A stretch of DNA of 36,423 nucleotides, from assembly GCA_900321195.1 (NCBI GenBank), contig ONVG01000001.1:1-36423 (forward strand), read 5' to 3'. The first letter of the stretch is position 1, and each line of letters opens with the position of its first letter. This document shows positions 14,067-31,392 of the stretch, piece after piece. Source of the DNA: an uncultured Eubacteriales bacterium. GTDB taxonomy: Bacteria > Bacillota > Clostridia > Oscillospirales > Acutalibacteraceae. The position numbers were made by a program, and so were the translations under genes. The notes under the pieces were generated by a model. That model was given only the letters and a program-made list of their open reading frames with translations, had not been told where the DNA came from and searched no databases.

Positions 14067-14101
14067 CACTATTCATTATTCACTATTCATTATTCATTAT
14101 T
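14067..14101. repeat. heptamer array (CAYTATT)x5 abutting the tape measure stop codon
   Basis: Units read CACTATT CATTATT CACTATT CATTATT CATTATT. The last unit overlaps the TAA stop. Confidence 0.9.
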
Positions 14102-17100
14102 TACAGGCTGACTATTGCTTTAAGGAACTGCTGAGCCTGTTTTTGTGTCAGAGCCGACCCTCTGACAGCTTCAAAGTTCTGAGTAACGTTGTTATTGTTA
14201 ATGATCTGCTGCGTTGACAGAGTCCCGCTTGCTTTTGCGAGAAGGTAGGAAAAGTTTTCAAGCGTAGTATTAAGGTTTTTCATAGCGGCAGTATTTTTGT
14301 CTATCTCATCATTAGCCTTGTTCTGGATATCAAGCTTTTTCTGTTCCATCCTTCTCTGGTAGTCGGCTTCTGCCTGTTCGTTAAGTATCTCCTGCCGCCG
14401 CTGTTCAAGCGAAAGCCTGCTGGTCTCATTGTCGTCGTGCATATATTTGAGCTGTAGGTTAATAGCGTCCAGCTCTTTTTTCCTGCTGTCGTCTTCCTGC
14501 TTCTGCCTTCGCTTCTCAAGCTGTTCGTCTATCTCTTTGACCTGCCTGTCAGCACCCGCTTTTATAGCGTCATTCAGATCATTGAGCTTTTCGACCTGCC
14601 CGTTAATCAGTTTTGTATACGCTGCCAACGCATACTCCTGCGCTTTTTTAGCGTTTTCGTTCTGTTTTTGCAGCTGTGCGTCCGCTAACTTGTCTGTAAG
14701 GTTCTTGAGCTTGAGCCTGATGCTGTAGGATTCGTCAGCGGTAAGCTGTTCCTGACGGAGTATCTTTTCATACTCGGCTTTAAGCTCATTGTCGTTTATT
14801 TTGCCTATCTGATGAACACGCTCAACAAGACTTAAACGTGCGGCGGCACTGGTGTCTCCCGTGCCGATTTCGTCCATCCAGCCCCATGTCCACTGCACGC
14901 TGTCGTTTCCTGCGCTTGTCTGAGTCGGATTGTAGTTGTTGTTGGTGTTATCGTTTCCGCCGTAATTGTTTACGCCGAAGTTTTTCAGTGACTCAATGGC
15001 TTTGTTGTAGGCGTCGATCTTATCCGTACCGTTGTTGAACTCGCCGTTAAGCTCTGCAAGCTGATCTTTTGCATTGCCGGTAAGAGTTATAAGGGTCTTG
15101 TAGCTGTCCATTGACGTCAGCTTTAAATTTTTCAGAACCCGGAGATAGTTTTCGTAAGTCCTTATCTGATCCCTCAGTTTATCCATGAGTTTTTCTCTTT
15201 TGTTGTTTTCTTCTTGTACTGCGTCCCGCGCACTTTCAAGAGTCAACCGAAGCTCATCTTTTTTGAGGTTAAAAAGCTTTTCAACTATTTCTTTCTGAGC
15301 TTCAAGACTTCCGTTAGCGTTTATTATATCCGCCGCATATTCGGGATATTTTTCGGCAAGCTGTAAAAGCGCGTCAATACTCAGCTGCTGACCGTCACTC
15401 AGAGACTTGTACGTATTTGCAAGACTGTTCATCTCGCTCCTGACGCTTGCGGACTGCTTTGCGATATCAGAAAGCTTTTCACTGAGTGTCTGAGCATCCC
15501 ACGCTGCAGTTTTATACTCAGCCTGCGCAGACTTAACGTCTTCTTTAAGCCCTACCTGTTCGGTCCTGAGCTGCGCCAGCTTTTCTTTGGCTTCTTCAAG
15601 CTGCTGACCTTTAATTATAGCGTCCTCGTCTGTTATATCAGGCTTGTTGAGTTCCTTTCTCAGTCTTTCGATTTCATCCTGAGTATTTTTGATCTCGGTC
15701 CTGTTATCCTCAAGAGCCTTGTTTGCGTTTGTCAGCCTTTCTTGTAAATAATCTGCCGCCTCTCCCGTATCACGGAAAAGTTCATAAAAGCCTTTCAGGT
15801 CATACCCCTCTTCACCGTTCAGCATCTTATCAGCATACGCTTGAACATCATCCACAGCGTCCCCGACTTCTTCGATCTTGCCCTTGACTCCGTCCAAAGC
15901 TGCGCCTGATGAATTAGTAGCCGCCTTTGCGTTTTCCGTATATGTAACAGCTTCGTCAATTTTTCCGCTGTAATAGTCAACTGCCTTTGCAGCATCAATA
16001 GCAGCGTTTTTCAGTGCCGTAACTTCTTCTACAACATCCTTGGTGTCATAGTTGTATTCGTTGCGGTTGAGGTTTCCTTTTTCATCGTACAGATCCGGAT
16101 ATTTTTCCCGAACTTCCTGAAGCTTCATTCGGTAAGCTTCTTCCGCCTTCAGCTGAGTTTCATACGCAGATGTCAGTCCTGCCTTTGCCGCTTCCATCTG
16201 AGCTTCAAGCTTCATCATTTCGACGGTCTCTTTTATCTTGTCTGCTAAACTCTGATACTCCCCCGCCGTATTCTTGACTTCGTCTGCTTCAAGTCCCAGC
16301 TTGCTTTGCAGTGTATCAGCGATTGAAGCTAATCTGTTCTTTTCCTCACTTGTAAGGTCTGCTTTAACTCTGAGCTTTTCATATTCAGCTCCTAAAGACT
16401 GTATGTATATAACTTCACTTTCAGCGGAAGCAGCACTCGCAGCAGACGCTTCCGAAGCGGTTTTTAACGCTTCGTTCACTTTCTCTGTTGCATCAGCTGA
16501 GTTTCTTGCAGCAATTGAATACGCCGTTAATCCGGTAGTCAATGCTCCGAAAAGTCCTATAACTACACCTACCGGATTGGAATTCATAGCGGTATTAAGA
16601 GCGATCTGACTTGCTGTTTCTTTGTCCGTTGCCATCTTCAGTGCAGACACAGCCGAGCATAAACTGTTAATAAGGGATCCAATAGATAAACCTATTTTGT
16701 ACCCCGCCAACGCACCTGCCGCCCCTGCGACTGCTTCTTTGTGCTTAACGACCCACATAACAAGATTTTTGAGATCCTCTGCGCCCTTACGGATGGTAAC
16801 CCCCCATGACTTCATAACGGTTTCAAGCTCTCCCGACTGCGCCATAGCGTTGACCTCGTCAAGCAGATCGTCAGCCACTTCAAGAAGTCCTTCCACAGCA
16901 GGGGTCATCTGAGAAGCCGTCAGCCGCTGTAAAGAATTGCTTTTAGAGATAAGACTGTCTATTTCGTCGTTGAATTTGTTAAGTCCGTCAAGCTGATCCT
17001 GAGATAGTATAAGCCCTGCCTTTTCCGCTTCATCGCCGATAGCCTTGAGCGCATCCGCGCCGCCCATGATAAGCGGGTTAAGCTGCTGAGCGGATTTGCC

Positions 17101-17916
17101 GAAGATCTCCATCGCGAGGGCATCCCGCTCCGTTTCGTTCCCTACTTTGCCGAGTGCTTCAATGACATCATAGAAAACTTCCTCACGGTCTTTCAGCTGT
17201 CCGGAACTGTCGAGTATAGATACATTCAGCTTATCGAAGCTTTCCGCAGCCGCCCCTGTACCGTTCTCAGCTGACGCAGCCATATTTTTGGTCAGCTTAG
17301 TCAGACTTCCGCTGAGCGTATCCATAGAAACATCAATAAGCTGAGTTGCATATTCAAACTTTTGAAGTTCTGAAGTAGATATTCCGGTGGTTTTAGACAG
17401 AGTATTCATACTGTCCGCCCACTGCGCCGCCTGCCTGCCGTAAGATACCATACCGGCGACTGCCGCTGTACCTGCTGCCGCAAGCCCCGCAAGCTCAGAA
17501 CCTAAGTCTTTGGCATGGGTCTTGGCGTCATCCATAGAAGTCTTGAACTTCTCCATAGCATTTTTCTGTTCTTCGATCTTCTTTTTGGTGCTGTCTATTT
17601 CATTTTTAAGCCCTGCCTGAGCGATTTTCAGATCATCGAGTTTTTTCTTAGCCTCTCTGATCACATCATTAAGCTCTTCCTGCCTTTTCTTCTGCCCTTC
17701 GGTAGCCTTGCCGTTTTTCTGAATTTCCTTTTCAAGTAATGCTAATTCCTTTTCAGCGTCTTTGATTTCCTTTGACGCTGCTTTTTGTTCTTTAGTGTTG
17801 TTCTTGTATTCCTTTTGAAGTTTTCTGAGCGACTCCGTCATCCTGTCGATACCGGCTTCAAATGACTTTGTTCCCGCCCCGAAATTCGTCACATAAGACC
17901 TTCCGCTCTCCGCCAT
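14101..17916 (-). CDS. tail tape measure protein
   Basis: 1271 aa, long coiled-coil regions, central Ala/Gly-rich TM-like segments, located after the chaperone gene. Confidence 0.9.
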   Translation of the reverse strand: MAESGRSYVTNFGAGTKSFEAGIDRMTESLRKLQKEYKNNTKEQKAASKEIKDAEKELALLEKEIQKNGKATEGQKKRQEELNDVIREAKKKLDDLKIAQAGLKNEIDSTKKKIEEQKNAMEKFKTSMDDAKTHAKDLGSELAGLAAAGTAAVAGMVSYGRQAAQWADSMNTLSKTTGISTSELQKFEYATQLIDVSMDTLSGSLTKLTKNMAASAENGTGAAAESFDKLNVSILDSSGQLKDREEVFYDVIEALGKVGNETERDALAMEIFGKSAQQLNPLIMGGADALKAIGDEAEKAGLILSQDQLDGLNKFNDEIDSLISKSNSLQRLTASQMTPAVEGLLEVADDLLDEVNAMAQSGELETVMKSWGVTIRKGAEDLKNLVMWVVKHKEAVAGAAGALAGYKIGLSIGSLINSLCSAVSALKMATDKETASQIALNTAMNSNPVGVVIGLFGALTTGLTAYSIAARNSADATEKVNEALKTASEASAASAASAESEVIYIQSLGAEYEKLRVKADLTSEEKNRLASIADTLQSKLGLEADEVKNTAGEYQSLADKIKETVEMMKLEAQMEAAKAGLTSAYETQLKAEEAYRMKLQEVREKYPDLYDEKGNLNRNEYNYDTKDVVEEVTALKNAAIDAAKAVDYYSGKIDEAVTYTENAKAATNSSGAALDGVKGKIEEVGDAVDDVQAYADKMLNGEEGYDLKGFYELFRDTGEAADYLQERLTNANKALEDNRTEIKNTQDEIERLRKELNKPDITDEDAIIKGQQLEEAKEKLAQLRTEQVGLKEDVKSAQAEYKTAAWDAQTLSEKLSDIAKQSASVRSEMNSLANTYKSLSDGQQLSIDALLQLAEKYPEYAADIINANGSLEAQKEIVEKLFNLKKDELRLTLESARDAVQEENNKREKLMDKLRDQIRTYENYLRVLKNLKLTSMDSYKTLITLTGNAKDQLAELNGEFNNGTDKIDAYNKAIESLKNFGVNNYGGNDNTNNNYNPTQTSAGNDSVQWTWGWMDEIGTGDTSAAARLSLVERVHQIGKINDNELKAEYEKILRQEQLTADESYSIRLKLKNLTDKLADAQLQKQNENAKKAQEYALAAYTKLINGQVEKLNDLNDAIKAGADRQVKEIDEQLEKRRQKQEDDSRKKELDAINLQLKYMHDDNETSRLSLEQRRQEILNEQAEADYQRRMEQKKLDIQNKANDEIDKNTAAMKNLNTTLENFSYLLAKASGTLSTQQIINNNNVTQNFEAVRGSALTQKQAQQFLKAIVSL

Positions 17917-17935
17917 ACTGCCACCACCCTTTTTT

Positions 17936-17968
17936 TAATGAATAATTAATAATGAATAATGAATAATG
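17936..17968. repeat. heptamer array, opposite orientation (AATRAAT-type units, about 4.7 copies), just 5' of the tape measure RBS
   Basis: TAATGAATAATTAATAATGAATAATGAATAATG. The identical 33-mer recurs at 25066 and 27083. Confidence 0.9.
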
Positions 17969-18047
17969 TTTGTAGCTCTGACTTTTTCCGCCGAATCCTT
18001 CGTCACCCTTGAGCGACCCCTGCGTTATTCCCGGTACAGGCACGCGC

Positions 18048-18076
18048 AAAAAAATAAAGCATCCGCTAACGGACGC
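18048..18076 (-). terminator. rho-independent terminator (minus strand)
   Basis: Minus strand reads GCGUCCG UUAG CGGAUGC followed by UUUAUUUUUUU. Confidence 0.6.
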
Positions 18077-18105
18077 TTGACAATACAGGTGTGATGTTGT
18101 AAAAT
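18077..18105 (+). promoter_or_regulatory. near-consensus promoter for a short plus-strand RNA
   Basis: TTGACA (18077-18082), 17-nt spacer, TAAAAT (18100-18105). Confidence 0.6.
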
Positions 18106-18111
18106 AAAGAC

Positions 18112-18208
18112 AAAGAGAGTACCGCACAGTAGGCGGTTTGCTCCCCAAGATTGGTATTAAGAAAACACCGCAGCTTTGGAAGGGCTTGGCGGTGTTTTCT
18201 TATTTTTT
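18112..18208 (+). ncRNA. candidate antisense sRNA (about 97 nt), putative type I antitoxin
   Basis: Bounded by the promoter above and a terminator: stem GAAAACACCGC/GCGGTGTTTTC at 18161-18199, then a T-run to 18208. No ORF. Antisense to the 3' region of the minus-strand peptide transcript. Confidence 0.5.
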
Positions 18209-18227
18209 ATGTAAAAAACTAAGAAAA

Positions 18228-18323
18228 TTACTTTCTCTTACTATTATCTCTAACGATATTGTAAACGAAAGTGATAACATGGACTAAAGCCACTATGCAA
18301 GCGCATACATCGCTGATCGTCAT
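18228..18323 (-). CDS. 31-aa hydrophobic peptide, type I toxin-like (Hol-Tox/Fst-like pattern)
   Basis: MTISDVCACIVALVHVITFVYNIVRDNSKRK. SD AAAGGGGG lies 8 nt upstream and can pair in the hairpin CCCCUU-AGUA-AAGGGG. Has its own promoter. Confidence 0.5.
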   Translation of the reverse strand: MTISDVCACIVALVHVITFVYNIVRDNSKRK

Positions 18324-18404
18324 AGCTATCGACCCCCTTTACTAAGGGGAACAAACCGCCTTTGCCGGCAAAAGCCGGCACCGCACTGTACAGTACTCGT
18401 GTTT

Positions 18405-18433
18405 ATTCTAACACCACATCTCGACCATGTCAA
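18405..18433 (-). promoter_or_regulatory. near-consensus promoter for the small peptide gene
   Basis: Minus strand reads TTGACA, 17-nt spacer, TGtTAGAAT (extended -10). Confidence 0.6.
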
Positions 18434-18468
18434 GAGTCAATCATATTCTATTTACCTGCGAGCCGCCA

Positions 18469-18502
18469 CAGCTCTGAGCTCATAGCCCTTAGCTCTGAGC
18501 TA
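18469..18502. repeat. stop-adjacent AGCTCTGAGCT palindrome pair
   Basis: CAGCTCTGAGCT...CCCTTAGCTCTGAGCTA, ending in the TAG stop of the chaperone gene. Near-identical copy at 21167-21200. Confidence 0.8.
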
Positions 18503-19048
18503 CAAACTATCATATCTTTTAACGATAACGGGTTTGTCTTTTTGTCCCTTGACTTCAAGGTACTTGTCGATCCTGTCGTCGATCTCTGCCCGTGTGCTTG
18601 ACCAGAACTCTTCCTCAGGACGCTTTATTATGTCGCAGTAAAACGCTCTCAAATGTCCGTAACCCGTATAGTAGTTGTGTTCCTCATCGTTTCCCGCAGC
18701 CGCCCTGCTTTTGCTGAAGCTTTCCGAGATCGCCATCATAAGCTCCAAGCGAAGGCGGGGCAGGTCGCATATACCGACCGCCGCCCCCAGCTCAGACAGC
18801 AGCGGCTTGACTGCTGTAAAATCCCTGTTAGAAACACATTCACGGTTTTCGGGCAGGTCACAGAATCCTGCTCTTAAAAGCTGTAAGCAGTCTTCGATCT
18901 GCCACTTGTCATACTCTGTCTGAAGTATTTTTTCAATGCTTTTATACTCCACTTCAAGGTAAAGCAACGCGTTAAGAGAGAACCTGATCTTAAACTCTCT
19001 CCCCCCGATATGTACAACGCTTGACTTTCTTATAAGACTGCTTAACAT
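18500..19048 (-). CDS. tail assembly chaperone (start refined)
   Basis: Lies between the major tail and tape measure genes. VVHIGGREFKIRFSLNALLYLE resembles gpG-type chaperones. AAGGGG RBS ahead of the ATG at 19048. Confidence 0.55.
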   Translation of the reverse strand: MLSSLIRKSSVVHIGGREFKIRFSLNALLYLEVEYKSIEKILQTEYDKWQIEDCLQLLRAGFCDLPENRECVSNRDFTAVKPLLSELGAAVGICDLPRLRLELMMAISESFSKSRAAAGNDEEHNYYTGYGHLRAFYCDIIKRPEEEFWSSTRAEIDDRIDKYLEVKGQKDKPVIVKRYDSL

Positions 19049-19066
19049 AAAACCAAACCCCTTTTT

Positions 19067-19097
19067 AATAGTGTGAAGAGTGAAGTGTGAAGATAAG
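19067..19097. repeat. degenerate 7-nt repeat (GTGAAG-type) just 5' of the chaperone RBS
   Basis: AATAGTGTGAAGAGTGAAGTGTGAAGATAAG. Confidence 0.6.
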
Positions 19098-19128
19098 AAT
19101 TTTTTGAAAATTTGCAAATTCTTTCAAA

Positions 19129-19193
19129 GTCATCCTTGCGGATGACCGCTTTGCCGCCGCAAAGCACACCTCACGCGACCCGCTTGCGGCGGC
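19129..19193. other. two strong intergenic hairpins
   Basis: GTCATCC-ttgc-GGATGAC (19129-19146), and GCCGCCGCAA...TTGCGGCGGC (19153-19193) with a 10-bp stem. Confidence 0.7.
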
Positions 19194-19206: not shown

Positions 19207-20145
19207 TCAGACTACAACCGTTGCTGTGATAGTCTTTGTTGCTGTGAGTCCGTTAGCGTCCTTAGCAACGATTTTAAAATAATAAACGGTGTCACTTACA
19301 ACAGTTACTTCCCTTGTAGCAGTGGTGTCGCTGCTGTCCTCAGCAACGGCAGTCCAGCTGTCGCTTCCCTGCGCTTTAAGATAATAGCTGTACTTGTAAG
19401 GCGCAGTGCCGCCCGATGCGCTTCCGCTGAATGTAACAGTACTTCCGCTGTTAATAGTGCCGCCGTCAAGTACAGGCAAACTATTAACTATTATTGCGGA
19501 ATTCGTGTTATACAAACCATCTCTTCCAACGAAATCTCCATCCGTAAACCAGTTCTCGATAAATGCCGCGCCTTCCTCAGTGTTGGGATTAACACCCTTT
19601 GCTTCATAGATTTTACCCGTCAGGTTCTCGTTAGTGGAGAAGGTATTGAAGAAAGTAAACGGAACAGAGATAGTAGAGAACGTAGCCTGTCCCGACTCAT
19701 TCACCTGATCTACAGTTTTTTCGTATGGTGAGAACTTGCACCTAAGGAACTTGTACAGGTTAATGAGCCCTTCTTCGCTATCAGTATCAGTAATAAACGC
19801 AAGTCGTACATAAGGCGCAATATCCCTGCTGCCCACATTGGTAATATTGATAACAGAATTATTCAGAATCACACCGCCTGCAGTATTCCCGAGAATCATT
19901 GACCTTTCGCCCGGTGTCAGCTCCGCCAGTCCCAGCGTACCCTGTCCGTTGGGAATACCGGTATACGAACCTACCGTAACACCGTCGGAGTTCACGAACT
20001 GCGTATTAGCGTTAAGCGACCAGGACGCGGACTTTGCGCGTTCCCCGAAAGCGTAAGCCTTACCGCACTGTTCAGTCTTGCTGTTTGTAAACGGCCATAC
20101 TACAATATTTCTGACATTCACGTCATGATTTACAAGAACATTCAT
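19207..20145 (-). CDS. major tail protein with C-terminal Ig-like domain
   Basis: 312-aa ORF in the expected position. C-terminus VTFSGSASGGTAPYKYSYYLK...YYFKIVAKDANGLTATKTITATVV is Ig/PKD-like. Confidence 0.7.
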   Translation of the reverse strand: MNVLVNHDVNVRNIVVWPFTNSKTEQCGKAYAFGERAKSASWSLNANTQFVNSDGVTVGSYTGIPNGQGTLGLAELTPGERSMILGNTAGGVILNNSVINITNVGSRDIAPYVRLAFITDTDSEEGLINLYKFLRCKFSPYEKTVDQVNESGQATFSTISVPFTFFNTFSTNENLTGKIYEAKGVNPNTEEGAAFIENWFTDGDFVGRDGLYNTNSAIIVNSLPVLDGGTINSGSTVTFSGSASGGTAPYKYSYYLKAQGSDSWTAVAEDSSDTTATREVTVVSDTVYYFKIVAKDANGLTATKTITATVVV

Positions 20146-20220
20146 TATAATTTCCCCCTTTTTTTCAATCAGGAATCAGGAATTATTATCACAAACAATA
20201 CCTTTTTCCCTTCCGTAATT

Positions 20221-20252
20221 CACTATTCATTATTCATTGTTCACTATTCACT
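20221..20252. repeat. heptamer array (CAYTRTT, about 4.6 copies) overlapping the stop of 20234..20584
   Basis: CACTATT CATTATT CATTGTT CACTATT CACT. Confidence 0.85.
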
Positions 20253-20584
20253 AAAACAAATTCCAGGTCTCTTCTGAACTCTTTCGGGAATAGTTCATCC
20301 TCAGCATATCTGCATCCGCTGTAGCGGATCCTTCTGCTTTCAAGCAAGGCGATAACGCTTTCCTTGACATTATCCACAGCTGTTTCGGAGAATCCCATAA
20401 CAGATACGGTAATGTAACAGTACCTTGCCGCTAAGGACCCGTCATACCTTGCCGCTGTAATTTCATAAGCTGAGATCACAGCGAGCACATCCGGCTTGTC
20501 GCCCTTGCCAAACTCGGGCATTTTAGTGTAGACGTCCACCCCGGCTCCCGCCAGTATGTCCGCCACGGTTTTTACTGCATTCAC
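20234..20584 (-). CDS. tail completion / terminator-like protein
   Basis: 116-aa ORF between the gp10-like gene and the major tail gene. Confidence 0.45.
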   Translation of the reverse strand: MNAVKTVADILAGAGVDVYTKMPEFGKGDKPDVLAVISAYEITAARYDGSLAARYCYITVSVMGFSETAVDNVKESVIALLESRRIRYSGCRYAEDELFPKEFRRDLEFVLVNSEQ

Positions 20585-21084
20585 GTCATCGCCTTCTTCT
20601 GAACCGCTTCGACCTTTCTGATGATAAGATCGGAAGCTCCAATTTTTTTGTTGTCAAATCCTCTGCGTATATGGGGCTGAGGCTGTATAGGTCCTTTTTT
20701 CTTCCTCATAAAAACAGTTCTGCCGGTTTTGGTTTTGTAGTGCCAATACCTGTATTCGCTTTGCCGTGTTGACGAAGACTGCCCGGGACGCCCATGTTCA
20801 AAGATAAGCCCTATCACAGGCCAGTCACCGGATCTGAAATCCCTGTACCCGACTTTTATAGATAGCTTGCCGTTTTTTTGCAGTTCTATCCCGCCCGCTG
20901 ATATCCACTCAGGCAGTACATGACAGATAGGCGCGGCAAGCCTTTTCATCTCAGCTGCGATAATTTTACCGCCCTCGTTGAGACCTTCGGCAACAGCCTG
21001 CCTTACTTCTTGTTTGCATAAGTCCAGATCTTTGATAAACGAAGCAATATCAGGCTCTTCCATAGTAAAAACATCATCCGCCAT
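20581..21084 (-). CDS. HK97 gp10-like head-tail joining protein (start refined)
   Basis: Position and size fit. AAAGGTG RBS 9 nt ahead of the ATG at 21084. Confidence 0.5.
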   Translation of the reverse strand: MADDVFTMEEPDIASFIKDLDLCKQEVRQAVAEGLNEGGKIIAAEMKRLAAPICHVLPEWISAGGIELQKNGKLSIKVGYRDFRSGDWPVIGLIFEHGRPGQSSSTRQSEYRYWHYKTKTGRTVFMRKKKGPIQPQPHIRRGFDNKKIGASDLIIRKVEAVQKKAMT

Positions 21085-21166: not shown

Positions 21167-21200
21167 CAGCTCTGAGCTCTGAGCCCTTAGCTCTGAGCTA
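21167..21200. repeat. stop-adjacent AGCTCTGAGCT palindrome cluster
   Basis: CAGCTCTGAGCTCTGAGCCCTTAGCTCTGAGCTA, ending in the TAG stop of 21198..21512. Confidence 0.8.
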
Positions 21201-23163: not shown

Positions 23164-23196
23164 TAATGAATAATTAATAATTAATAATGAATAATG
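23164..23196. repeat. heptamer array (AATRAAT type)
   Basis: TAATGAATAATTAATAATTAATAATGAATAATG. Confidence 0.9.
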
Positions 23197-23249
23197 TTTG
23201 TCGACTCTGAGCCCATCCGCTAAGTGTCATTTTTTAGCCGTCCCGGCTT

Positions 23250-23288
23250 CACTATTCACTATTCACTATTCACTATTCATTATTCACT
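23250..23288. repeat. heptamer array (CAYTATT, about 5.6 copies) overlapping the protease stop
   Basis: CACTATT x4, CATTATT, CACT. Inverted relative to 23164-23196, 53 nt away. Confidence 0.9.
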
Positions 23289-23930
23289 AAGCGCTAACAT
23301 CAGCTTGAGCGCAAGCCTTTTCTTAGCGGCTTCTCTGACCTTAGCCCGTACAAACTCCATCTGCGCTGTAATAAACGAGCGTGTACCTATGGATGTCGTA
23401 TCATTTGCGGGCAGCGACACTGCCGAAACGTCATATATTTTTCGTATGTTCTTGTAAGTGATCAACCGCTGTTCAGGGTCATAATCAACTTCTCCGGGCA
23501 GAAAAGCCCAGGACATTTTAGTGACCATGCCGGTAGATATGTCGCTGTACAGCCCCCTCGAAGCATCGGTTTTTGACAGATCCGCCGCCACAAATAAACC
23601 GCTGTCACTGACTTCAACGATAAGCGTTTTGTTGCTCATCCTTGCCATAACTCTGCCGCTGTGATCATATTGCATGATAACATCAGACATATCGGTATTT
23701 CTGAAATCCTCTTTATGAAACTGTTCATAGATCGGACCGTCATCAAAATCAAACAGTATATATCTTTCGTAGTTTGCGGCGAAGCCTTCAACGTAGAAGT
23801 CACTGTTTATCCTCTTCTTGTTCTGTTCCTGCTGAGTCAGTACCGGCATCTGCCTGTACTGCCTTTCCTGCTTTATCGGCATTATCCTCATCTCCTGTTC
23901 TGAGGGCTTCACTTTCGCCCTCATCAGCAT
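23280..23930 (-). CDS. HK97-family prohead protease (true start probably an internal Met)
   Basis: Lies between the portal and capsid genes. FYVEGFAANYERY and about 200 aa fit the family. The annotated start overlaps the portal gene by 130 nt. Confidence 0.75.
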   Translation of the reverse strand: MLMRAKVKPSEQEMRIMPIKQERQYRQMPVLTQQEQNKKRINSDFYVEGFAANYERYILFDFDDGPIYEQFHKEDFRNTDMSDVIMQYDHSGRVMARMSNKTLIVEVSDSGLFVAADLSKTDASRGLYSDISTGMVTKMSWAFLPGEVDYDPEQRLITYKNIRKIYDVSAVSLPANDTTSIGTRSFITAQMEFVRAKVREAAKKRLALKLMLALSE

Positions 23931-25050
23931 TTTTATACTCGCCTCTTATGTAACGTATGTCACCGCCCTCGACCGGTGCCATATTGAATACTTCACGGGC
24001 TTCGTTAATGGACAGTCCGCCTCTGTCGCCGAATTCTTTTACAAAGCTTATTTTGTCAGCAATTGAAGCATATTGCAGACGATTGGAACTGAAAAACACC
24101 TGATTCCCGTAAGCCTTCTGATTGTCCGTGAATAGCATATCGGTATGTACAAGCGACAGTTCCAGCGCAAAGGGCTCAATTTTGCCCTCATAAAAAGCGT
24201 TCCATTCATCGGGGCTAAAACTGTTCTGTAATATTTTCTCGTTGACTCCGAAATAATTGAACACGTTCTGTTTGATCTGATCCATCTGCGCCGCATCAAT
24301 GGCCACAGGTTTTGACTCTATCTGCTTTACATCCTGATATTTGCTGTCAATTACCATAGCCCCGCCGTTGTTAGCCGAGCCGAGATAGAAGTTGTTGAAG
24401 TAATCTCTTTCCTTTTCAACATCCTTAGGCTTGAGCGGCTGTACAAGCTTTGCAATAAATCGTATTGTTGCGGAATTTTTTATACCTTCAATGATACCTT
24501 GATTCTGAACGTTTATAAGCTCAAGAGTTGATCTAAAAGCCTTGTTGTTCTCGCCCCAGAGTTCGTCCTTGAACTGGAACTGGTTCAGTATCCCGCATTT
24601 TTCAAGCTCAATTGCAAAATAATTGTCATTGTCAAGCCGGTATCTTATGTACACTTCCCCCTGATATTCCCTCAGCTCAATTTTTGAGGTAATAAGAGGA
24701 TAGAATCCCTCGATCTGCCCGAGCCTGTTTTCTATTGGCGCAATAACGGCATTGTTTTCCACAGCATAAGCTGTAGCCAGCCTGTACAGGTACTTTTTTG
24801 TATCCATGATACTATTCGGCTGAAACTGTAAACGCCTCTCTAATGCCCTGTTACCGGGCGCATTGCCCGCAATTTCGGGCTTGAGTTTTGAAGCGTGTAC
24901 AGCAAAGGCATGGACCGCCGCCCTTGTCAGCTCCATCTCATAGATACCGCCGCTGAAGCTGCTGAATGCAGGAGAATAAGCAGAAAACAAGCTGAAATAC
25001 TCCCCGAGTGCCTTTTCAATTTTCTTTTCCTTCCTCGAAAACAGCCCCAT
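23800..25050 (-). CDS. portal protein (start refined)
   Basis: 416 aa, directly after terL. AAGGTGG RBS ahead of the ATG at 25050. The longer ORF-track start reads through the heptamer array. Confidence 0.88.
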   Translation of the reverse strand: MGLFSRKEKKIEKALGEYFSLFSAYSPAFSSFSGGIYEMELTRAAVHAFAVHASKLKPEIAGNAPGNRALERRLQFQPNSIMDTKKYLYRLATAYAVENNAVIAPIENRLGQIEGFYPLITSKIELREYQGEVYIRYRLDNDNYFAIELEKCGILNQFQFKDELWGENNKAFRSTLELINVQNQGIIEGIKNSATIRFIAKLVQPLKPKDVEKERDYFNNFYLGSANNGGAMVIDSKYQDVKQIESKPVAIDAAQMDQIKQNVFNYFGVNEKILQNSFSPDEWNAFYEGKIEPFALELSLVHTDMLFTDNQKAYGNQVFFSSNRLQYASIADKISFVKEFGDRGGLSINEAREVFNMAPVEGGDIRYIRGEYKNADEGESEALRTGDEDNADKAGKAVQADAGTDSAGTEQEEDKQ

Positions 25051-25065
25051 CACAACCACCTTTTT

Positions 25066-25098
25066 TAATGAATAATTAATAATGAATAATGAATAATG
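25066..25098. repeat. heptamer array just 5' of the portal RBS
   Basis: Identical 33-mer to 17936-17968. Confidence 0.9.
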
Positions 25099-25147
25099 TT
25101 TGTCGGCTCCAAACCGCCACGCTTTGAACTGCTTCGCTTGCGAAGCC

Positions 25148-26812
25148 CTATTCATTAAGATAAATAAACTTGTCCTTGTTGTCCTGTAGGACTATGTAAC
25201 CGCAGATAAGAGCGACACTGCCGTCAATTCTCTGAGTCCTGTCGGTTTTCTTTACAGGCTGAATATTGCCGTTAATGTCCGTTTTGACTTCCGTGTTGAA
25301 TAAACACCATTTGTCTATCGGATTGTTGTCATATATAACATTTCCCTCAGCGAAATCCGCCGCAAGATCCTTCATGGGTCTTGACATTGTATACACACCC
25401 TGACGTACCGGTATCATGCACTTATCACCGAATTCTGCACGAAACTGCGCAAGTAAAGTGTCGTCGATATGCCACGGGTCATATCCTATGTAAAGCGTGT
25501 AGATGTCGTATTCATCCCTCAGCTCCCCGAACCATTCAAGGAAAATACGCTTGTCGCACTTGCGCCCGGGGCAGGTACGAAGATACCCTTGTTCTATCCA
25601 AAGATCATACGGCACCTTGTCACGTCCTTCACGGCTGCCCCTGCGCTGCTGCTCTTCAATGACCGCTTCCGGTATCCAGTACATGGATTTGACGTAGATG
25701 TGTGGATCATCAGGACGCATGAACATAACCTTGGCAGCATTAAGATCAACACTGTCTGCTGCGTCGAATCCGCCTACACCATAGCCAAAATCTTGGATAT
25801 CAAAGGTCTGATTGTTGTTGAATACTTCGTAAGGCATCCACCCAGATACAGAAGTCTGAGGTATGTTGAAGTCCTTTACAAGCACAGTCGGTTTGAACGT
25901 CGGATCGTCAAGAGCCTTGCTGACATAGCCCTTGAGTGCTTCAAAGGATTTTACGGTCCCTAGCCCGGGATTAGCCTTTATCCAGGCATTTTCATCCGTC
26001 CACTCTTTCGGGTCATCCAGTTCATATATAAGCGGCAGAAACCTCTCGTTTTTCTCTTCAAGTTCGCCGTAAAGAAGCTTTTTTGAGTAAGCGTACTGCG
26101 CATCAAAAATGCCCTCACGGATAAATCCATTGGTAGTTATTGTATACATAAGAGGCTGCTGCCTTGCTGACATAGACTGTTTGACGAGATCGTAAATATC
26201 ACGGTTTTTTATAGCCGCAAGCTCATCCACACACCCGAAATGAGTGTTCAGACCGTCAAGACCGTTGCTGTTGGAGCTGAGAGCCTTGATAAAGCCCATA
26301 TTACCCTCACAATAAAGATCAGCCGCTCTTTTTCTTGTGTAACGAGATAACATAGGCGACTGTCTTTTCATGTTCAGACAGGCTGTAAAAGCCTTTTTAG
26401 CCTGATCGAGTTTTGTTGCAACGTTGTATATTTCTGGTGCGCCCTCGCCGTCGCATATAAGCATATAAAGCTCAATCGCCGCTGTTTCGGTAGTCTTTCC
26501 GTTTTTACGTCCTTCGATTATAAGCACTTCCTGAAACTGCCTGAGATCATCGTCGTCCACGAACCCGAAAATGGCTTCAAGACGCGCTTTCTGGAACAGC
26601 TCCAGCGTCAGCGGCTGCCCGAGCCGTCCGTCAGGCTTGCAGCAGAAGGATTCAATGAACTCTATAGGTCTTCGGGCAAGATTGCGGTCAAAATGAAACC
26701 TGCCCGGGTTCCGGAACTCCGTAAGCAGCATTTCCGCCGCCTTTTTAAGCTTTTCACAGGCGACGATCCGCCCGTCATAAACGGCGGTAAAATATATTTC
26801 AAAATCAGTCAT
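25148..26812 (-). CDS. terL: terminase large subunit
   Basis: 554 aa, Walker A GRKNGKTT, followed by the portal gene. Confidence 0.92.
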   Translation of the reverse strand: MTDFEIYFTAVYDGRIVACEKLKKAAEMLLTEFRNPGRFHFDRNLARRPIEFIESFCCKPDGRLGQPLTLELFQKARLEAIFGFVDDDDLRQFQEVLIIEGRKNGKTTETAAIELYMLICDGEGAPEIYNVATKLDQAKKAFTACLNMKRQSPMLSRYTRKRAADLYCEGNMGFIKALSSNSNGLDGLNTHFGCVDELAAIKNRDIYDLVKQSMSARQQPLMYTITTNGFIREGIFDAQYAYSKKLLYGELEEKNERFLPLIYELDDPKEWTDENAWIKANPGLGTVKSFEALKGYVSKALDDPTFKPTVLVKDFNIPQTSVSGWMPYEVFNNNQTFDIQDFGYGVGGFDAADSVDLNAAKVMFMRPDDPHIYVKSMYWIPEAVIEEQQRRGSREGRDKVPYDLWIEQGYLRTCPGRKCDKRIFLEWFGELRDEYDIYTLYIGYDPWHIDDTLLAQFRAEFGDKCMIPVRQGVYTMSRPMKDLAADFAEGNVIYDNNPIDKWCLFNTEVKTDINGNIQPVKKTDRTQRIDGSVALICGYIVLQDNKDKFIYLNE

Positions 26813-27074
26813 TTGTCGCTACCCCGTCATTAATACCCCTGTTCCAGTAGGAGCGAGCCATTACAGAAGCTGCCCGGGCACTTTCCCCGAAAGCGGATAC
26901 CATCCTGTGACAGCCTTTGCAGTAAACGGTTGAAACGAACCCGGGCACACCGACATAATTTCTTCCCGGTATAGTGCCTTGTATAGCCTCACCTTCGCAG
27001 TAAAAACAATTTTTAAGCTCTTTGACTTCTTTTTCAACCTTGTCAATAACCTTTTCACTTTTCAACCGTCTCAC
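26805..27074 (-). CDS. Lar-like zinc-ribbon protein (restriction-alleviation-like)
   Basis: CFYCEGEA...VYCKGCHRM...ARSYWNRG follows the pattern CPFCGG...C..C...WNRR. Probable TTG start at 27065. Confidence 0.45.
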   Translation of the reverse strand: MRRLKSEKVIDKVEKEVKELKNCFYCEGEAIQGTIPGRNYVGVPGFVSTVYCKGCHRMVSAFGESARAASVMARSYWNRGINDGVATND

Positions 27075-27082: not shown

Positions 27083-27115
27083 TAATGAATAATTAATAAT
27101 GAATAATGAATAATG
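27083..27115. repeat. heptamer array just 5' of the RBS of 26805..27074
   Basis: Identical 33-mer to 17936-17968. Confidence 0.9.
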
Positions 27116-27127
27116 TTTATCTGCTCC

Positions 27128-27201
27128 GAGTTCCACGTTGTCATCCTGCCCTCGTTGTCATCCCGAGTCCCACGTTGTCATCCTGCCCTCGTTGTCATCC
27201 C
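27128..27201. repeat. tandem 37-nt repeat x2
   Basis: GAGTYCCACGTTGTCATCCTGCCCTCGTTGTCATCCC occurs twice. Confidence 0.85.
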
Positions 27202-27276
27202 GAGCGAAGCGAGGGATCTTTATCACGAAAGCGGCAGATCAGAAAGATTCCTCGTCGCTTTGCTCCCCGGAATGAC
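27194..27276. other. long imperfect hairpin (about 28-bp arms)
   Basis: GTCATCCCGAGCGAAGCGAGGGATCTTT pairs with AAAGATTCCTCGTCGCTTTGCTCCCCGGAATGAC. Second copy at 28751-28830. Confidence 0.75.
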
Positions 27277-27350
27277 AAACGGAAGACGCTCTTAGCTACA
27301 TTTTGTATATTATAAGTCAAAAGTACGTCCCCATAAGTTCAAGATATAGT

Positions 27351-27384
27351 AAAAAAAGAGACAGACTCAAAAGCCTGTCCCTCT
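27351..27384 (-). terminator. rho-independent terminator after 27433..27792
   Basis: Minus strand reads AGAGGGACAG...CTGTCTCT followed by TTTTTTT. Confidence 0.55.
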
Positions 27385-27432: not shown

Positions 27433-27792
27433 TCAATGTACTGTTTTATAACCTTTTTCGCCCTCGCTTTTCATTCTTGCTCCGCAGTTGGGGCAATATG
27501 GTGTAGCCTCATACTCGCTATTCTCATACCATCCACACTCTGAACAATAAGGCTTTTTTACCTTTGCCCACCGCTTTTCCTGTACCGCTCCATTTTCTCC
27601 ATAGCTGACACGACCAGTGTTTATTAAAATATTTCTTTCTTTGTAAATCCACTGCCCTGTTTTAGGTTGACCGCCGGGTATTTGTTCAATCCACTCTTTC
27701 ATCAACTCACCCATATTCGGGTGTTCTTTGATATAAGGTATGCTTTGGAGAAAAGCAATCGCCGCCTTTCTGCTTATTAGATCATCACTCAT
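27433..27792 (-). CDS. hypothetical protein with C-terminal zinc ribbon
   Basis: CSECG...CPNCG. 119-aa ORF. Confidence 0.5.
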   Translation of the reverse strand: MSDDLISRKAAIAFLQSIPYIKEHPNMGELMKEWIEQIPGGQPKTGQWIYKERNILINTGRVSYGENGAVQEKRWAKVKKPYCSECGWYENSEYEATPYCPNCGARMKSEGEKGYKTVH

Positions 27793-28283: not shown

Positions 28284-28583
28284 TCAGTCCTTTCTTCTGT
28301 CATCGAACCGTTCTCCGATATGAGCGCAGAGATATTCACGTTCGGTAACTTCGACCCATTCTTCACCGTCCAACTGAATTTCATATTTTTCGGGAGCTTG
28401 TACATTGAAGTAGCTGCCGCCCGCTTCAACGATCTCGATATGTTCCGATATAAACCGCTTATCGGTCACTCTTGGCAGATAATTCACCGGACTACAGAAC
28501 GCAATCCCGAGTATTAACGCAAAAAGCCCCGCAACCACTCCGACACAAGCGGCACCTGTCAGCCTTTCTTCTCTTTCATCCAA
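28284..28583 (-). CDS. hypothetical single-pass membrane protein
   Basis: TM segment GAACVGVVAGLFALILGIAF. AAAGGGGTG RBS and TTG start. Confidence 0.45.
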   Translation of the reverse strand: MDEREERLTGAACVGVVAGLFALILGIAFCSPVNYLPRVTDKRFISEHIEIVEAGGSYFNVQAPEKYEIQLDGEEWVEVTEREYLCAHIGERFDDRRKD

Positions 28584-28602
28584 ATCAACACACCCCTTTT
28601 GC

Positions 28603-28628
28603 TAATGAATAATTAATAATGAATAATG
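28603..28628. repeat. heptamer array just 5' of the RBS of 28284..28583
   Basis: TAATGAATAATTAATAATGAATAATG. Confidence 0.9.
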
Positions 28629-28640
28629 TTTAACTGCTCA

Positions 28641-28750
28641 GAGTCCCACGCTGTCATCCCGAGTTCCACGTTGTCATCCCGAGTTCCACGTTGTCATCCC
28701 GAGTTCCACGTTGTCATCCCGAGTTCCACGTTGTCATCCCGAGTTCCACG
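28641..28750. repeat. tandem 20-nt repeat, about 5.5 copies, containing a parS-like half-site
   Basis: GAGTTCCACGTTGTCATCCC repeated head to tail with no spacers. Confidence 0.9.
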
Positions 28751-28830
28751 TCCCGAGCGAAGCGAGGGATCTTTATCACGAAAGCAGCCGATCAGAAAGA
28801 TTCCTCGTCGCTTCGCTCCTCAGAATGACA
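28751..28830. other. long imperfect hairpin, second copy
   Basis: TCCCGAGCGAAGCGAGGGATCTTT pairs with AAAGATTCCTCGTCGCTTCGCTCCTCAGAATGACA. Confidence 0.75.
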
Positions 28831-28844
28831 CTTTATGCTCTGAG

Positions 28845-29936
28845 CTAAACTACTTCGTCAAGTATTTCTCTTACCGCTGTCAACGTTTCGCTGATCATCT
28901 CAGCATCGGGAACATCAGCATTTATAAGCTTATCAAGATATACCGCCAGAGAGTCAGCCACCCTGAGCTTTATCCCGACAATTTGTTCCTCATGAGAGGA
29001 CTGTTCATCATCGGAAACCGTAAAGTTTACAACCATATTGTCTGCGCCGGCAATAAGCTTTCCGTTTCCTCCTATCAGGAATGGGGAAATCGGGCCGGCA
29101 ACAGGCTTTTCCCCAATTGTTTCCCCGGAAGCATCTCCATTTTTGAATATTGCAATATTTTCTTTTATTTCCTGAACTTTTTCTTTCCCGACTTTTTCCA
29201 CTTGCTGAACGTCCTTTCCCTGTGTCTGACTCTCAGCCACCACTGATGTCTTTTTCTCGATATCCTTGTTTTCTTCTTCACCGTCTTTGCCCTCTTTTCC
29301 CGCTGTAAGTCTTGAATATTTGTTTTTTACAGCACTTTCTGTGATCCCGAATCTTTTCGCAGCATCTTTGACTGAGACCCCTGAATCAATAAGCTTTACA
29401 AGCTCTCCGCATTTTTCCTCATCCCACACAAAATATTTGCTATTTATCCGTCCGGCTTTCCTGAGTTCAGCCGCTCTTCTTTGAACTGTCGTTTCCGATA
29501 ACCCCAGCTTTTCTCCGATCTCCTTGTATGTATGTCCTTCTGCATATAAAGAGACCAGAGCATTATTCTGATCTTCTGCCCGCTTTTTACTGCTCATTTC
29601 ATCATCTCCACTGTCAGTGCTCTTTTCTTCCTGCCTTTTTCTGATGATATCCAAAAGTCTTTTTCTCTCGCTTTCGGTAAACATCATAAGTCTTACTCCC
29701 TTAGCGATACCGTCAGACATGATCCCCGACTCTACTGCCACATCCAGAGCTGTTGCGGGCGTGCAGAATTTCAGCTCCAGCAACCCGACAGCGATCTTCT
29801 CTATATCGCCGCTGCCTACTCTGCACACTGCCCTTATCAGTTCTTTCTGGTATTTGCTTAGCTTGTCTTTGGGCAGAACAACAACTTTCTCCGGATAGTC
29901 CGTTTCATTCAGTCCCGTGATCGAATTCTGTTTCAT
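28845..29936 (-). CDS. multi-HTH DNA-binding protein (possible small terminase or regulator)
   Basis: HTYKEIGEKLGLSETTVQRRAAELRKAG and VKDAAKRFGITESAVKNKYSR are HTH-like. 363 aa, upstream of terL. Confidence 0.45.
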   Translation of the reverse strand: MKQNSITGLNETDYPEKVVVLPKDKLSKYQKELIRAVCRVGSGDIEKIAVGLLELKFCTPATALDVAVESGIMSDGIAKGVRLMMFTESERKRLLDIIRKRQEEKSTDSGDDEMSSKKRAEDQNNALVSLYAEGHTYKEIGEKLGLSETTVQRRAAELRKAGRINSKYFVWDEEKCGELVKLIDSGVSVKDAAKRFGITESAVKNKYSRLTAGKEGKDGEEENKDIEKKTSVVAESQTQGKDVQQVEKVGKEKVQEIKENIAIFKNGDASGETIGEKPVAGPISPFLIGGNGKLIAGADNMVVNFTVSDDEQSSHEEQIVGIKLRVADSLAVYLDKLINADVPDAEMISETLTAVREILDEVV

Positions 29937-30299: not shown

Positions 30300-30301
30300 T
30301 T

Positions 30302-30954: not shown

Positions 30955-30962
30955 TCCACCTT

Positions 30963-31055: not shown

Positions 31056-31067
31056 ATTTTCAGCTCC

Positions 31068-31298
31068 TTAGTAGCACAGGCATTTCGCCACATCAAATAC
31101 AGCAGCAATACCGCTGTCGCAGTCTATGTCTATATCCTTCATGTGTCCGTTCTTGTATGTAACGCGGGCAGCCACACCTAAATAATCCTTATTTCCCTTG
31201 GGCACGGTCACAGGCACAATGCTCACTATGTTCTTGCCCGCATCCGTGAGCCTGAGAGTTTCGCCCAGGCTTTTAAGTATTGATGTCATGTTTTCCAT
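31068..31298 (-). CDS. hypothetical protein
   Basis: 76-aa ORF with an AGGAG RBS. Confidence 0.45.
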   Translation of the reverse strand: MENMTSILKSLGETLRLTDAGKNIVSIVPVTVPKGNKDYLGVAARVTYKNGHMKDIDIDCDSGIAAVFDVAKCLCY

Positions 31299-31360
31299 TC
31301 AGTTCATCTCCTGTAGTTTATTCAAAGCTCCTCACACAGCTGTACAGTGCCGGTTACTAA

Positions 31361-31392
31361 CATTATTCATTATTCACTATTCATTATTCACT
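31361..31392. repeat. heptamer array (CAYTATT, about 4.6 copies) overlapping the ParB-like stop
   Basis: CATTATT CATTATT CACTATT CATTATT CACT. Confidence 0.9.

Follow-up and report, generated by a model that had tools for sequence, protein, structure and literature searches.

Complementary heptanucleotide arrays as proposed arms of intercistronic cassettes in the late operon of a rumen Ruminococcus phage

The late head-tail operon of a temperate HK97-like siphophage of rumen Ruminococcus contains nine arrays of tandem 7-nt repeats that fall into two complementary types, one tied to stop codons and the other to Shine-Dalgarno (SD) sequences. The operon was examined in a stretch of 36,423 nt, hereafter the window (contig ONVG01000001.1 of assembly GCA_900321195.1, positions 1 to 36,423). 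The arrays are heptanucleotide tandem repeats resembling the short tandemly repeated repetitive (STRR) sequences of cyanobacteria, and they would form the two arms of cassettes between late genes. They are genuine and out of the ordinary: the phage carries a variant of a repeat class that is known but lacks an explanation. As a tentative explanation we propose palindromic cassettes between cistrons that turn over fast and exert a local effect on late mRNA, by way of RNase III processing, translational coupling or provision of an unstructured leader.

Read on the minus strand, the A type has the unit (C/A)ATTATT and the B type AATA(A/G)TG. Arrays were detected with Tandem Repeats Finder (TRF) and by reading out the minus strand. 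TRF reported period 7, 3.7–6 copies and 86–94% matches. A three-unit pattern with at most two mismatches matched 22 times versus 0.02 expected from 100 dinucleotide shuffles. All nine arrays that an initial annotation of the sequence had listed are present at the coordinates given there (Table 1). Three A arrays are, as it had said, one identical 33-mer, CATTATTCATTATTCATTATTAATTATTCATTA. Four of the five A arrays end 5–7 nt 5' of an SD, to which they are joined by A5-6 or GCAAAA followed by GG(G/T)G, and they keep a fixed phase with it; the fifth is set 79 nt upstream of the capsid ATG. The B arrays overlap or start at the stop codons of the ParB-like gene (31377), the protease gene (23280), open reading frame (ORF) 20234-20584 and the tape measure gene (14101), again in agreement with the annotation. 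Both types keep strictly to these positions relative to stop codons and SDs. Clear gaps of more than 40 nt number 12 between 31.4 and 14.0 kb, and 10 of them hold period-7 arrays. Outside 14.0–31.9 kb no period-7 array of at least three copies was found. Nine A and B arrays and five arrays of other units are dispersed over the region, every one at a gene junction. An assembly artefact is excluded by four more assemblies, 97–100% identical over the aligned late-gene region, which have identical arrays in every part that overlaps the window.

Some of the other units had been seen before and some had not. As reported, 7-nt arrays precede the ribosome binding sites (RBSs) of the major tail gene, the gene for a 171-aa protein and the chaperone gene. 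Not noticed earlier were a third array type at stops, AGCTCAG, and single B-like units at the TerL stop and at gene 21198-21512.

The A and B types are complementary, as the initial annotation had recognized. As minus-strand RNA the A x B duplexes are predicted at −21 to −35 kcal/mol, versus −13.5 to −27 kcal/mol as plus-strand RNA, making the minus-strand duplexes 3–15 kcal/mol more stable. Where both types meet, local B-A hairpins of 26–32 bp are predicted. The protease-capsid junction is the sole window junction with both types, and its arms are 51 nt apart. Its 221 nt (23080-23300) fold into a predicted stem of about 32 bp with a minimum free energy (MFE) of −68.1 kcal/mol (z −5.81), and 0/200 shuffles were as stable. 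The chaperone-tape measure junction of L092, a phage about 99% identical to the window, has a predicted B-A hairpin (z −4.96) whose base joins stop codon and SD. Stems of at least 20 bp, the length of an RNase III site, are predicted at 23164-23289 and at L092 8836-8925 and not at the seven arrays that lack a local partner. At two further places in the window a predicted closing stem joins stop and RBS: 28590-28852 (MFE −83.7 kcal/mol, z −2.7) and 19040-19180 (z −3.58). The A array at 28603-28628 is single-stranded in the fold of its whole junction, beside a 210-nt structured domain. In the minimum-energy fold the B-like unit at the TerL stop pairs with the first units of the portal A array. 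The 14067-14101 B array is predicted to be locally unstructured.

Loci L001-L310 were fetched, and IMG/VR was scanned for both units. Wherever complementary arrays lay within 250 nt of each other, the purine arm came first (63 pairs) and the pyrimidine arm never did (0 pairs). This count spans 25 contigs from 14 unrelated viral lineages with GC contents of 32–64%, and the arms of a pair are 4 to 250 nt apart. The purine-first order reads alike on both strands and so is independent of gene calls, which are crude in foreign contigs. When all adjacent arrays were counted regardless of complementarity, the purine arm was first in 38 cases and the pyrimidine arm in 1. The rule was not found stated in the publications consulted on STRR and heptanucleotide repeats.

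The window's own heptamers recur in head-operon junctions of the lambda-like L287 and the P22-like L293. Two B-loop-A-SD cassettes of L293 (GC 34%) use the window's units, one of them in a compact form reading stop, (AATAGTG)4, 21-nt loop, (CATTATT)2, SD; L293 was also the sole IMG/VR match to a tight B-N(15-45)-A pattern. Many unrelated IMG/VR contigs hold dispersed heptamer arrays of one RTGAA-like super-family and its complement, and (TAACTGA)n arrays stand beside AATAGTG arrays in L273 and L287. No protein was shared between the window and other array-rich loci in the fetched DNA, and a search of contig L008 against plasmids gave no match.

Close relatives reveal rapid turnover. The comparison set comprised L080, L092 and L300, which are 97–100% identical to the window, and copy number, unit order and presence of arrays differ among the four. 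Occupied and empty sites could be compared at the ParB junction (L080), the chaperone-tape measure junction (L092) and the holin junction (L300). The B array at the ParB-like stop is missing in L080 (97%), where a 20-nt spacer replaces the array and about 60 nt. In the same phage one unit of the 28603-28628 A array differs, the copy number of the 20-mers at 28 kb differs, and a stretch of about 85 nt made up of hairpin and 17-mers, a copy from the 27.1-kb junction, is inserted just upstream of the portal A array; conversion next to an array extends over more than 100 nt. The AATTATT unit of the portal A array has a different position in L092, and the 23248-23289 B array is one unit longer in both L080 and L092. 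The 532-nt block between chaperone stop and tape measure A array is replaced in L092 by a short B array and a 33-nt loop. At the holin stop L300 has an extra B array and a palindromic element, together with a divergent lysis module.

Conserved placement in related phages, which the initial annotation had put forward as a check, did not hold, for arrays are gained, lost and, in about 160 relatives, missing. Among relatives with 82% portal identity, L294 carries arrays at the TerL-portal junction, with TACAATG units at the TerL stop and CATTACG/CATTATA ahead of the SD, and L295 and L296 carry none at all. Three cassettes, each about 170 nt long, are present in L087 (72% portal identity); in each of them an arm of the GGAATTT type is followed by one of the TAATTCC type and by the SD. 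Its TAATTCC arrays lie upstream of a 167-aa ORF, the same gene-order position as the window's 21101-21132 array. The roughly 160 relatives at 44–63% portal identity have essentially no heptamer arrays. The exact A-array-plus-SD module was found in IMG/VR only in the close relative L080.

These observations suggest how a cassette might work. The upstream stop would be followed by a purine arm (AAUARUG) with stops in all three frames, a loop, a pyrimidine, G-poor arm ((C/A)AUUAUU), an A-rich spacer with the SD, and the next gene. The late genes are probably co-transcribed, judging from gene order and the lack of terminators. With both arms present the mRNA would form a local AU-rich helix of 26–32 bp holding the stop and the next RBS at the base of the stem. 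Bacterial RNase III cuts any regular double-stranded RNA of about 20 bp or more, and the host enzyme would be expected to cut such a helix, as at the intercistronic sites of T7 or SP82. Alternatively, terminating ribosomes might melt the helix and so couple translation of the two genes. Arms without a partner would stay single-stranded; they would keep structured RNA apart from the SD as an unstructured leader, or trail the gene with stops in all frames. Cassettes would come and go rapidly through slippage, through gene conversion from one copy to another and through insertion, some of them nested with a widespread palindromic element, and this turnover would leave most arrays in this genome as orphan halves. 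Any of these local effects may benefit the phage. RNase III processing and AU-rich leader or enhancer roles, both among the earlier suggestions, are plausible where local structures are concerned.

A number of results weigh against the cassette proposal. Seven of the nine arrays have no local partner and are predicted to be unstructured, and only one window junction has both arms, so the hairpin role is extrapolated for most arrays. The L087 cassettes fold no better or slightly better than shuffles (z 0.3, −2.0 and −1.6). Individual arrays are dispensable, as their presence differs between phages 97–99% identical. Covariation, the other comparative check named in the initial annotation, was not demonstrable across lineages: cross-contig arm pairs are as complementary as real neighbours and the units all belong to the RTGAA-like super-family, which leaves no true covariation signal. 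An argument for function at the RNA level had been drawn from G-U pairs that only minus-strand RNA can form. It holds for this genome, given the stronger minus-strand duplexes, but the sense strand is more stable in only 5/12 lineages, with the antisense strand more stable in 4 and ties in 3. The AATTATT variant, present in every A array, gives G-A mismatches with B arrays. Together with the strand split this means that wobble asymmetry is no general signature. Stop codons in the units are weakly enriched (77% versus 67% expected from permutations), and the trend toward stops and starts in foreign contigs is not significant (Fisher p 0.07, with crude gene calls).

Other roles in transcription were considered. 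The arrays lack the GC-rich stem, 3–8 nt loop and U tract of intrinsic terminators, and a terminator scan called none of them; their stems are AU-rich and A runs follow the A arrays. As promoters the A arrays offer weak 9/12 matches at best.

Table 1. Heptamer arrays, associated elements and principal genes of the window
Feature	Position	Strand	Context
B array, ~4 units AATAATG/AATAGTG	31361..31390	minus	overlaps last codons and stop of ParB-like gene
A array, 3.7 units	28603..28628	minus	ends 6 nt before SD GGGGTG of ORF 28284-28583
A array, identical 33-mer	27083..27115	minus	ends 5 nt before SD GGGGTG of ORF 26805-27065/27074, which sits just upstream of TerL
A array, identical 33-mer	25066..25098	minus	ends 5 nt before portal SD GGTGG
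B array, 6 units, mostly AATAGTG	23248..23289	minus	overlaps protease stop; 5' arm of local hairpin
A array	23164..23196	minus	3' hairpin arm; 51 nt after B array, 79 nt before capsid ATG
B array, 5 units	20218..20253	minus	gives last codons and stop of ORF 20234-20584
A array, identical 33-mer	17936..17968	minus	ends 7 nt before tape measure SD GGGTGG
B array, 5 units	14067..14101	minus	from tape measure TAA stop to ~10 nt before Dit SD GGGGTG
AGCTCAG-type array, 4.6 units	21168..21199	minus	first unit holds TAG stop of ORF 21198-21512
AGCTCAG-type array	18470..18501	minus	holds chaperone TAG stop; left border of 532-nt moron
Single AGCTCAG unit	28837-28847	minus	at stop of gene 28845-29936
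Single B-like unit AATGAATAG	25148..25156	minus	last two codons and TAG stop of TerL
Single B-like unit	21205-21213	minus	just before stop of gene 21198-21512
Degenerate pyrimidine-rich 7-nt array CTGATTCC ACTTTCC TAATTCC ACATTAATAA	21101..21132	minus	adjoins SD of ORF 20581-21084
ATTCCTG array, 2.4 units	20167..20183	minus	before A-rich SD of major tail gene
TCTTCAC/ACTTCAC array	19067..19097	minus	before chaperone SD; pairs with GUGAGGUGUG just past major tail stop
Structured domain	28636..28847	minus	between stop of gene 28845-29936 and A array
Second palindromic hairpin copy, 17-mer tandem repeats and CTCGGAGC	27123..27285	minus	directly 5' of A array
ParB-like gene	31377-32855	minus	
Helix-turn-helix (HTH) / sigma-70 region 4 protein, 363 aa	28845-29936	minus	
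TerL	25148-26812	minus	
Portal	23800-25050	minus	
Protease	23280-23930	minus	
Capsid	21831-23084	minus	ATG at 23084
Major tail	19207-20145	minus	
Chaperone gene	18500-19048	minus	
Tape measure	14101-17916	minus	
Dit	13296-14045	minus	

A selfish or neutral origin is a close rival of the cassette proposal and a real possibility, though we think it somewhat unlikely. The arrays would then be simple-sequence repeats or arms of a palindromic element resembling a miniature inverted-repeat transposable element (MITE), spread by slippage, gene conversion or trans-mobilisation and kept at junctions because they are harmless there, bringing their own stops and leaving the SD intact, with any effect on RNA incidental. 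The presence and copy-number differences among genomes 97–100% identical fit this well, as does the lack of arrays in nearly all more distant relatives. The identical 33-mers suggest recent copying, and the conversion in L080 took place beside an array. The same units occur in unrelated phages of 32–64% GC that have no protein in common with the window in the fetched DNA, and a fixed purine-first polarity is what would be expected of element termini. Heptamers are the commonest long simple-sequence repeats of prokaryotes and have been ascribed to polymerase slippage (Mrazek 2007, as cited in PMC4679880 and PMC4692102). On the other side, no transposase, target-site duplication or conserved internal sequence was found, and the loops differ between cassettes. 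Slippage alone leaves both the 63:0 polarity and the confinement to 10/12 junctions of one operon unexplained, and the phase of A arrays relative to the SD is constant.

Contiguity with a palindromic element also favours a selfish component. Two A arrays lie directly 3' of a large hairpin with 17-20-mer tandem repeats, an arrangement overlooked in the initial annotation. The domain at 28636..28847 comprises TAGCTCAGAGC, a stop with one AGCTCAG unit, and the large palindromic hairpin GTCATTCTGAGGAGCGAAGCGACGAGGAATC...GATCCCTCGCTTCGCTCGGGA; it also holds 5.6 copies of the 20-mer GGGATGACAACGTGGAACTC and CTCTGAGC, pairing back to GCTCAGAG. The block at 27123..27285 lies downstream of an intrinsic terminator (27384-27355). 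At these two window junctions the element, GTCATTCYGAG...CTCGGGATGAC with tandem end copies, stands between stop and A array, and in L300 it is placed after the B array. Its right half recurs in GC-rich (59–71%) viral contigs beside (CAGCGAC)n heptamers, and in L305 the element is in frame within a TerL-like ORF (739-2427) and a portal-sized ORF (2772-5444). This distribution favours a mobile or self-propagating component.

Copies of the element, of the form GTCATTCYGAGG..GGAATC / GATCCCTCGCTTCGCTCGGGATGAC with tandem 17-22-mer end copies, were seen at 28750-28835 and 27195-27285, at 20557-20700 of L300 and in L303-L310. The terminator at 27355-27384 (minus strand) is strong, with a 13-bp stem and a T run, and lies 3' of ORF 27433-27792. 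The transcript of ORF 26805-27065, TerL and beyond therefore probably begins within 27355-27075, and the 27.1-kb hairpin, the 17-mers and the A array would then probably form its 5' leader. No canonical promoter was found between 27355 and 27075.

It is quite improbable that only single-stranded arrays matter. Pyrimidine-rich arrays would in that case be translational enhancers or standby sites (landing pads for 30S or S1) or insulators of the SD, and purine arrays merely inverted copies or all-frame stops. Irrespective of unit (CATTATT, TCTTCAC, ATTCCTG, and TAATTCC in L087), pre-SD arrays are without exception poor in G and come to within a few nt of an A-rich SD, and one A array is predicted to be unpaired beside the 210-nt domain. 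The TAACTGA repeats upstream of starts in Beggiatoaceae have been proposed as sites for post-transcriptional regulators, with S1, Csp and CsrA as candidates (PMC4679880). Yet one A array is 79 nt from its gene with other hairpins between, the purine-rich B array takes the same pre-SD position before Dit, the genes with the highest expression are not those behind A arrays (the portal and tape measure genes and small ORFs), and close relatives manage without particular arrays. A phage-encoded protein that would bind the repeats or the RNA was looked for in most ORFs with Pfam and PHROG, and no RNase III, Hfq, CsrA, S1, KH, cold-shock, TRAP or HutP domain turned up. UAG-N4-UAG might be read as HutP-like, but many units carry UAA, and this reading was abandoned.

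The initial annotation had proposed that each 5' A array and a 3' B array enclose a gene block. In this model the two would pair over 1.8–3.8 kb, or in trans between mRNAs, and the panhandles would define processed or stabilised segments of late mRNA. The stems flanking 16S and 23S rRNA are an analogue. Since any A array can pair with any B array on the minus strand, long-range or trans pairing is possible, and for the 7/9 arrays without a local partner any pairing would have to be of this kind. Among tiles of the minus-strand transcript, the four that pair best with the A 33-mer are all in B arrays (−24 to −31 kcal/mol, versus a mean of −4.1 and a standard deviation of 3.1), and the strand difference in duplex stability points the same way. 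Between 25.1 and 14.1 kb the arrays do follow one another as A-B-A-B-A-B, but this carries little weight because 2/20 orders of three A and three B arrays alternate (chance about 0.1), and further upstream alternation fails (B-A-A-A). Where a nearby partner exists it is always in the same junction (window, L092, L293), and the proposed partners are gained and lost independently in close relatives rather than co-inherited. In addition, the intervening RNA is translated and AATTATT units add G-A mismatches. Bracketing of gene blocks is thus very unlikely.

About as improbable are DNA-level sites for a phage or host protein, such as a late activator, a silencer of the stoperator or H-NS kind, a terminase or a ParB-like protein. 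A 363-aa sigma-70 region 4 / HTH protein is encoded just upstream of the first A array and the 20-mers, the ParB-like gene is adjacent, and the purine-first layout resembles inverted half-sites. TTTTGAT heptad repeats upstream of ctxAB in CTX phage are transcription-factor sites, which offers an analogy. Against such sites, several unrelated unit sequences occupy equivalent positions, arm spacing ranges over 4–250 nt, nothing promoter-like lies at the arrays beyond the weak 9/12 matches, the same units occur in phages sharing no proteins in fetched DNA, and arrays stand in both orientations relative to transcription, unlike stoperators.

Least credible of all are recombination linkers, short homologies for module exchange between co-infecting phages, for although rearrangements abut arrays (moron versus B-loop before the tape measure gene, the L080 portal block, the L300 lysis module), identity between relatives does not step at arrays, with no breakpoint in identity profiles, the tape measure 98–100% identical for 1 kb past its A array and divergence internal, and identical 33-mers at three junctions would favour deletions over orderly exchange.

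Heptanucleotide repeats have a literature of their own, in which STRR sequences and heptanucleotide simple-sequence repeats are treated by Mazel (1990) and Mrazek (2007) and reviewed in PMC4692102, PMC4679880 and PMC2670836. Heptanucleotides are described as the most abundant long simple-sequence repeats (LSSRs) in prokaryotes where PMC4679880 and PMC4692102 cite Mrazek (2007). In cyanobacteria, co-transcribed genes such as hupS and hupL have 7-bp STRR hairpins between them, for which an effect on transcript stability or translational coupling has been suggested (PMC2670836). Marine Beggiatoaceae, cyanobacteria and Bacteroidetes have TAACTGA direct repeats immediately ahead of start codons (MacGregor 2015, PMC4679880). 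No function is proven for any of these repeats, and a literature search for such arrays in phages found no description.

The arrays share with STRR and LSSR sequences 7-nt tandem units in three to many copies at many dispersed intergenic sites, several unit variants per genome, copy number that varies in close strains, a sporadic phylogenetic distribution and a capacity for hairpins between co-transcribed genes. They differ in occurring in a Firmicute phage instead of a cyanobacterial or proteobacterial chromosome, and in their units (CATTATT, AATARTG and AGCTCAG, versus CCCCAGT, TTGGTCA and CAACAGT of STRR1-3). They also comprise two complementary families, tied to stops and SDs respectively, that follow the purine-first rule when paired. 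Tandem 7-nt units in at least three copies, dispersed and length-polymorphic, define LSSRs and are all present; the units and host of strict STRRs (heterocystous cyanobacteria) are not, so these are LSSR/STRR-like repeats and not STRR proper. TAACTGA repeats are comparable heptamer direct repeats, in 2–6 copies immediately upstream of starts and in one orientation; they too give stops in all frames once repeated and have a patchy distribution suggestive of horizontal spread, and a translational role has been proposed for them. TAACTGA repeats, however, replace or overlap the RBS, whereas forward A arrays end 5–7 nt before a canonical SD, and complementary stop-side arrays and hairpins are not described for them. 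The window has no TAACTGA arrays.

The R sites of T7 and their counterparts in Bacillus phage SP82 are intercistronic RNase III processing hairpins of polycistronic mRNAs. The cassettes would likewise be repeated stem-loops (predicted stems of at least 20 bp) in gaps of long phage transcripts that would separate cistrons and leave protective 3' stems. T7 sites, by contrast, have a defined bulged structure conserved in relatives, whereas the cassettes have nearly perfect, AU-rich stems of tandem heptamers that vary in near-identical genomes and are absent from the roughly 160 portal relatives; most arms are orphans. MITE-like palindromic repeats co-transcribed with genes include Correia/NEMIS of Neisseria, ERIC, RUP and the Rickettsia palindromic elements. 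Inverted-repeat ends of fixed polarity (63 versus 0), presence/absence polymorphism, insertion at junctions and hairpins in mRNA, cut by RNase III in the Correia case, are points of likeness, and the associated palindromic element lies in frame in ORFs like the Rickettsia elements. The cassettes differ in having no target-site duplication or shared internal sequence: in the window, in L092 and in L293 no flanking duplication could be told apart from the repeat unit, and the loops of all three are unrelated. No cognate transposase was found, and the arms are tandem repeats of variable length instead of fixed terminal inverted repeats. By function the cassettes would most resemble T7/SP82 RNase III sites or Correia-type MITEs, yet they fail defining features of both. 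Mycobacteriophage stoperators are single 13-bp sites in one orientation, bound by repressor. They and start-associated sequences are also short motifs dispersed in phage gaps, with orientation tied to transcription or position tied to starts, but the arrays are tandem heptamers of several units in two orientations and not single asymmetric sites.

Heptanucleotide repeats have been known in cyanobacteria since 1990 without an established function or origin. A phage late operon is a compact, ordered setting in which the relation of such repeats to stops, RBSs and each other can be read directly, and together with the purine-first rule it gives concrete predictions for reporter and RNA-mapping work. 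If the cassettes modulate processing or coupling, they would be nature's counterpart of the insulator parts that synthetic biology places between genes; if selfish, they would be a previously unremarked repeat class that reshapes phage gene junctions, even splitting or extending ORFs. More speculatively, and in our view unlikely, the heptamer-armed cassette could be a portable, strand-symmetric form of gene punctuation common to unrelated tailed phages and STRR-bearing bacteria, made up of one arm with stops in every frame, a hairpin and a second, G-poor arm as leader. Were this so, it could be inserted between or within ORFs in either orientation without losing its capacity to terminate, to process or couple, and to start translation anew. 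Selection by the machineries of translation and RNA decay would then underlie the purine-first rule, and the 35-year-old heptanucleotide puzzle would gain a testable function.

Heptamer arrays can mislead gene callers, which accounts for odd C-terminal codons and spurious ORF extensions. A mechanical 451-aa "portal" ORF (23800-25155, minus strand) starts at 25155 and extends across the A array, since (CATTATT)n has no stop in this frame; the true portal start is the ATG at 25050, behind the SD.

As to the phage itself, nearly all window genes are on the minus strand, and Dit is followed by tail genes, holin, endolysin and integrase. The portal of one contig is 99% identical, and that contig is assigned to the metagenome-assembled genome of uncultured Ruminococcus sp. 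RUG10851. Megablast of the 14–32 kb region against INPHARED phages gave no match. An Rfam scan returned nothing above gathering thresholds and a tRNA search found none.

Several side features were noted. A double hairpin precedes the capsid gene at 23090-23160 (minus strand), reading ..GGCGGAGUGACCGGGGC, then GCAGGCGGGGAGUUCGCCUGU, then AUUUUG. Hairpins resembling it lie upstream of capsid genes in relatives without the heptamer cassette (L087 8820-8880, L296 2340-2385 and L297 4720-4770). The double hairpin may serve the capsid gene as a conserved leader or attenuator. Among near-identical phages the tape measure gene varies internally (15290-16800 versus L092; L300 12230-15697), with patches of 64–84% identity between flanks of 98–100%, and its product has 1155 aa in L300 versus 1271 aa in the window.

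The 532-nt inserted block (moron) missing in L092 occupies 17969-18501 on the minus strand. It has a near-consensus sigma-70 promoter at 18433-18405 (TTGACA-17-TAGAAT with TG), a 31-aa hydrophobic/basic ORF, MTISDVCACIVALVHVITFVYNIVRDNSKRK, at 18323-18228 followed by terminator-like hairpins, and a convergent plus-strand promoter at 18077-18105 with 11/12 matches. This layout resembles a type I toxin-antitoxin module.

Away from the late genes, ORF 34006-34773 contains a coding 18-nt tandem repeat of 22 copies at 34226-34623 (minus strand) and matches the YdcK beta-solenoid repeat (E 1e-27) and bactofilin. A low-GC block (34–40%) adjoins the integrase gene at 3713-7256 (plus strand). It encodes an RNase T/DnaQ-like exonuclease (4164-5276) and a channel protein of the ion-transport family (5284-6087), and is probably cargo expressed in lysogeny.

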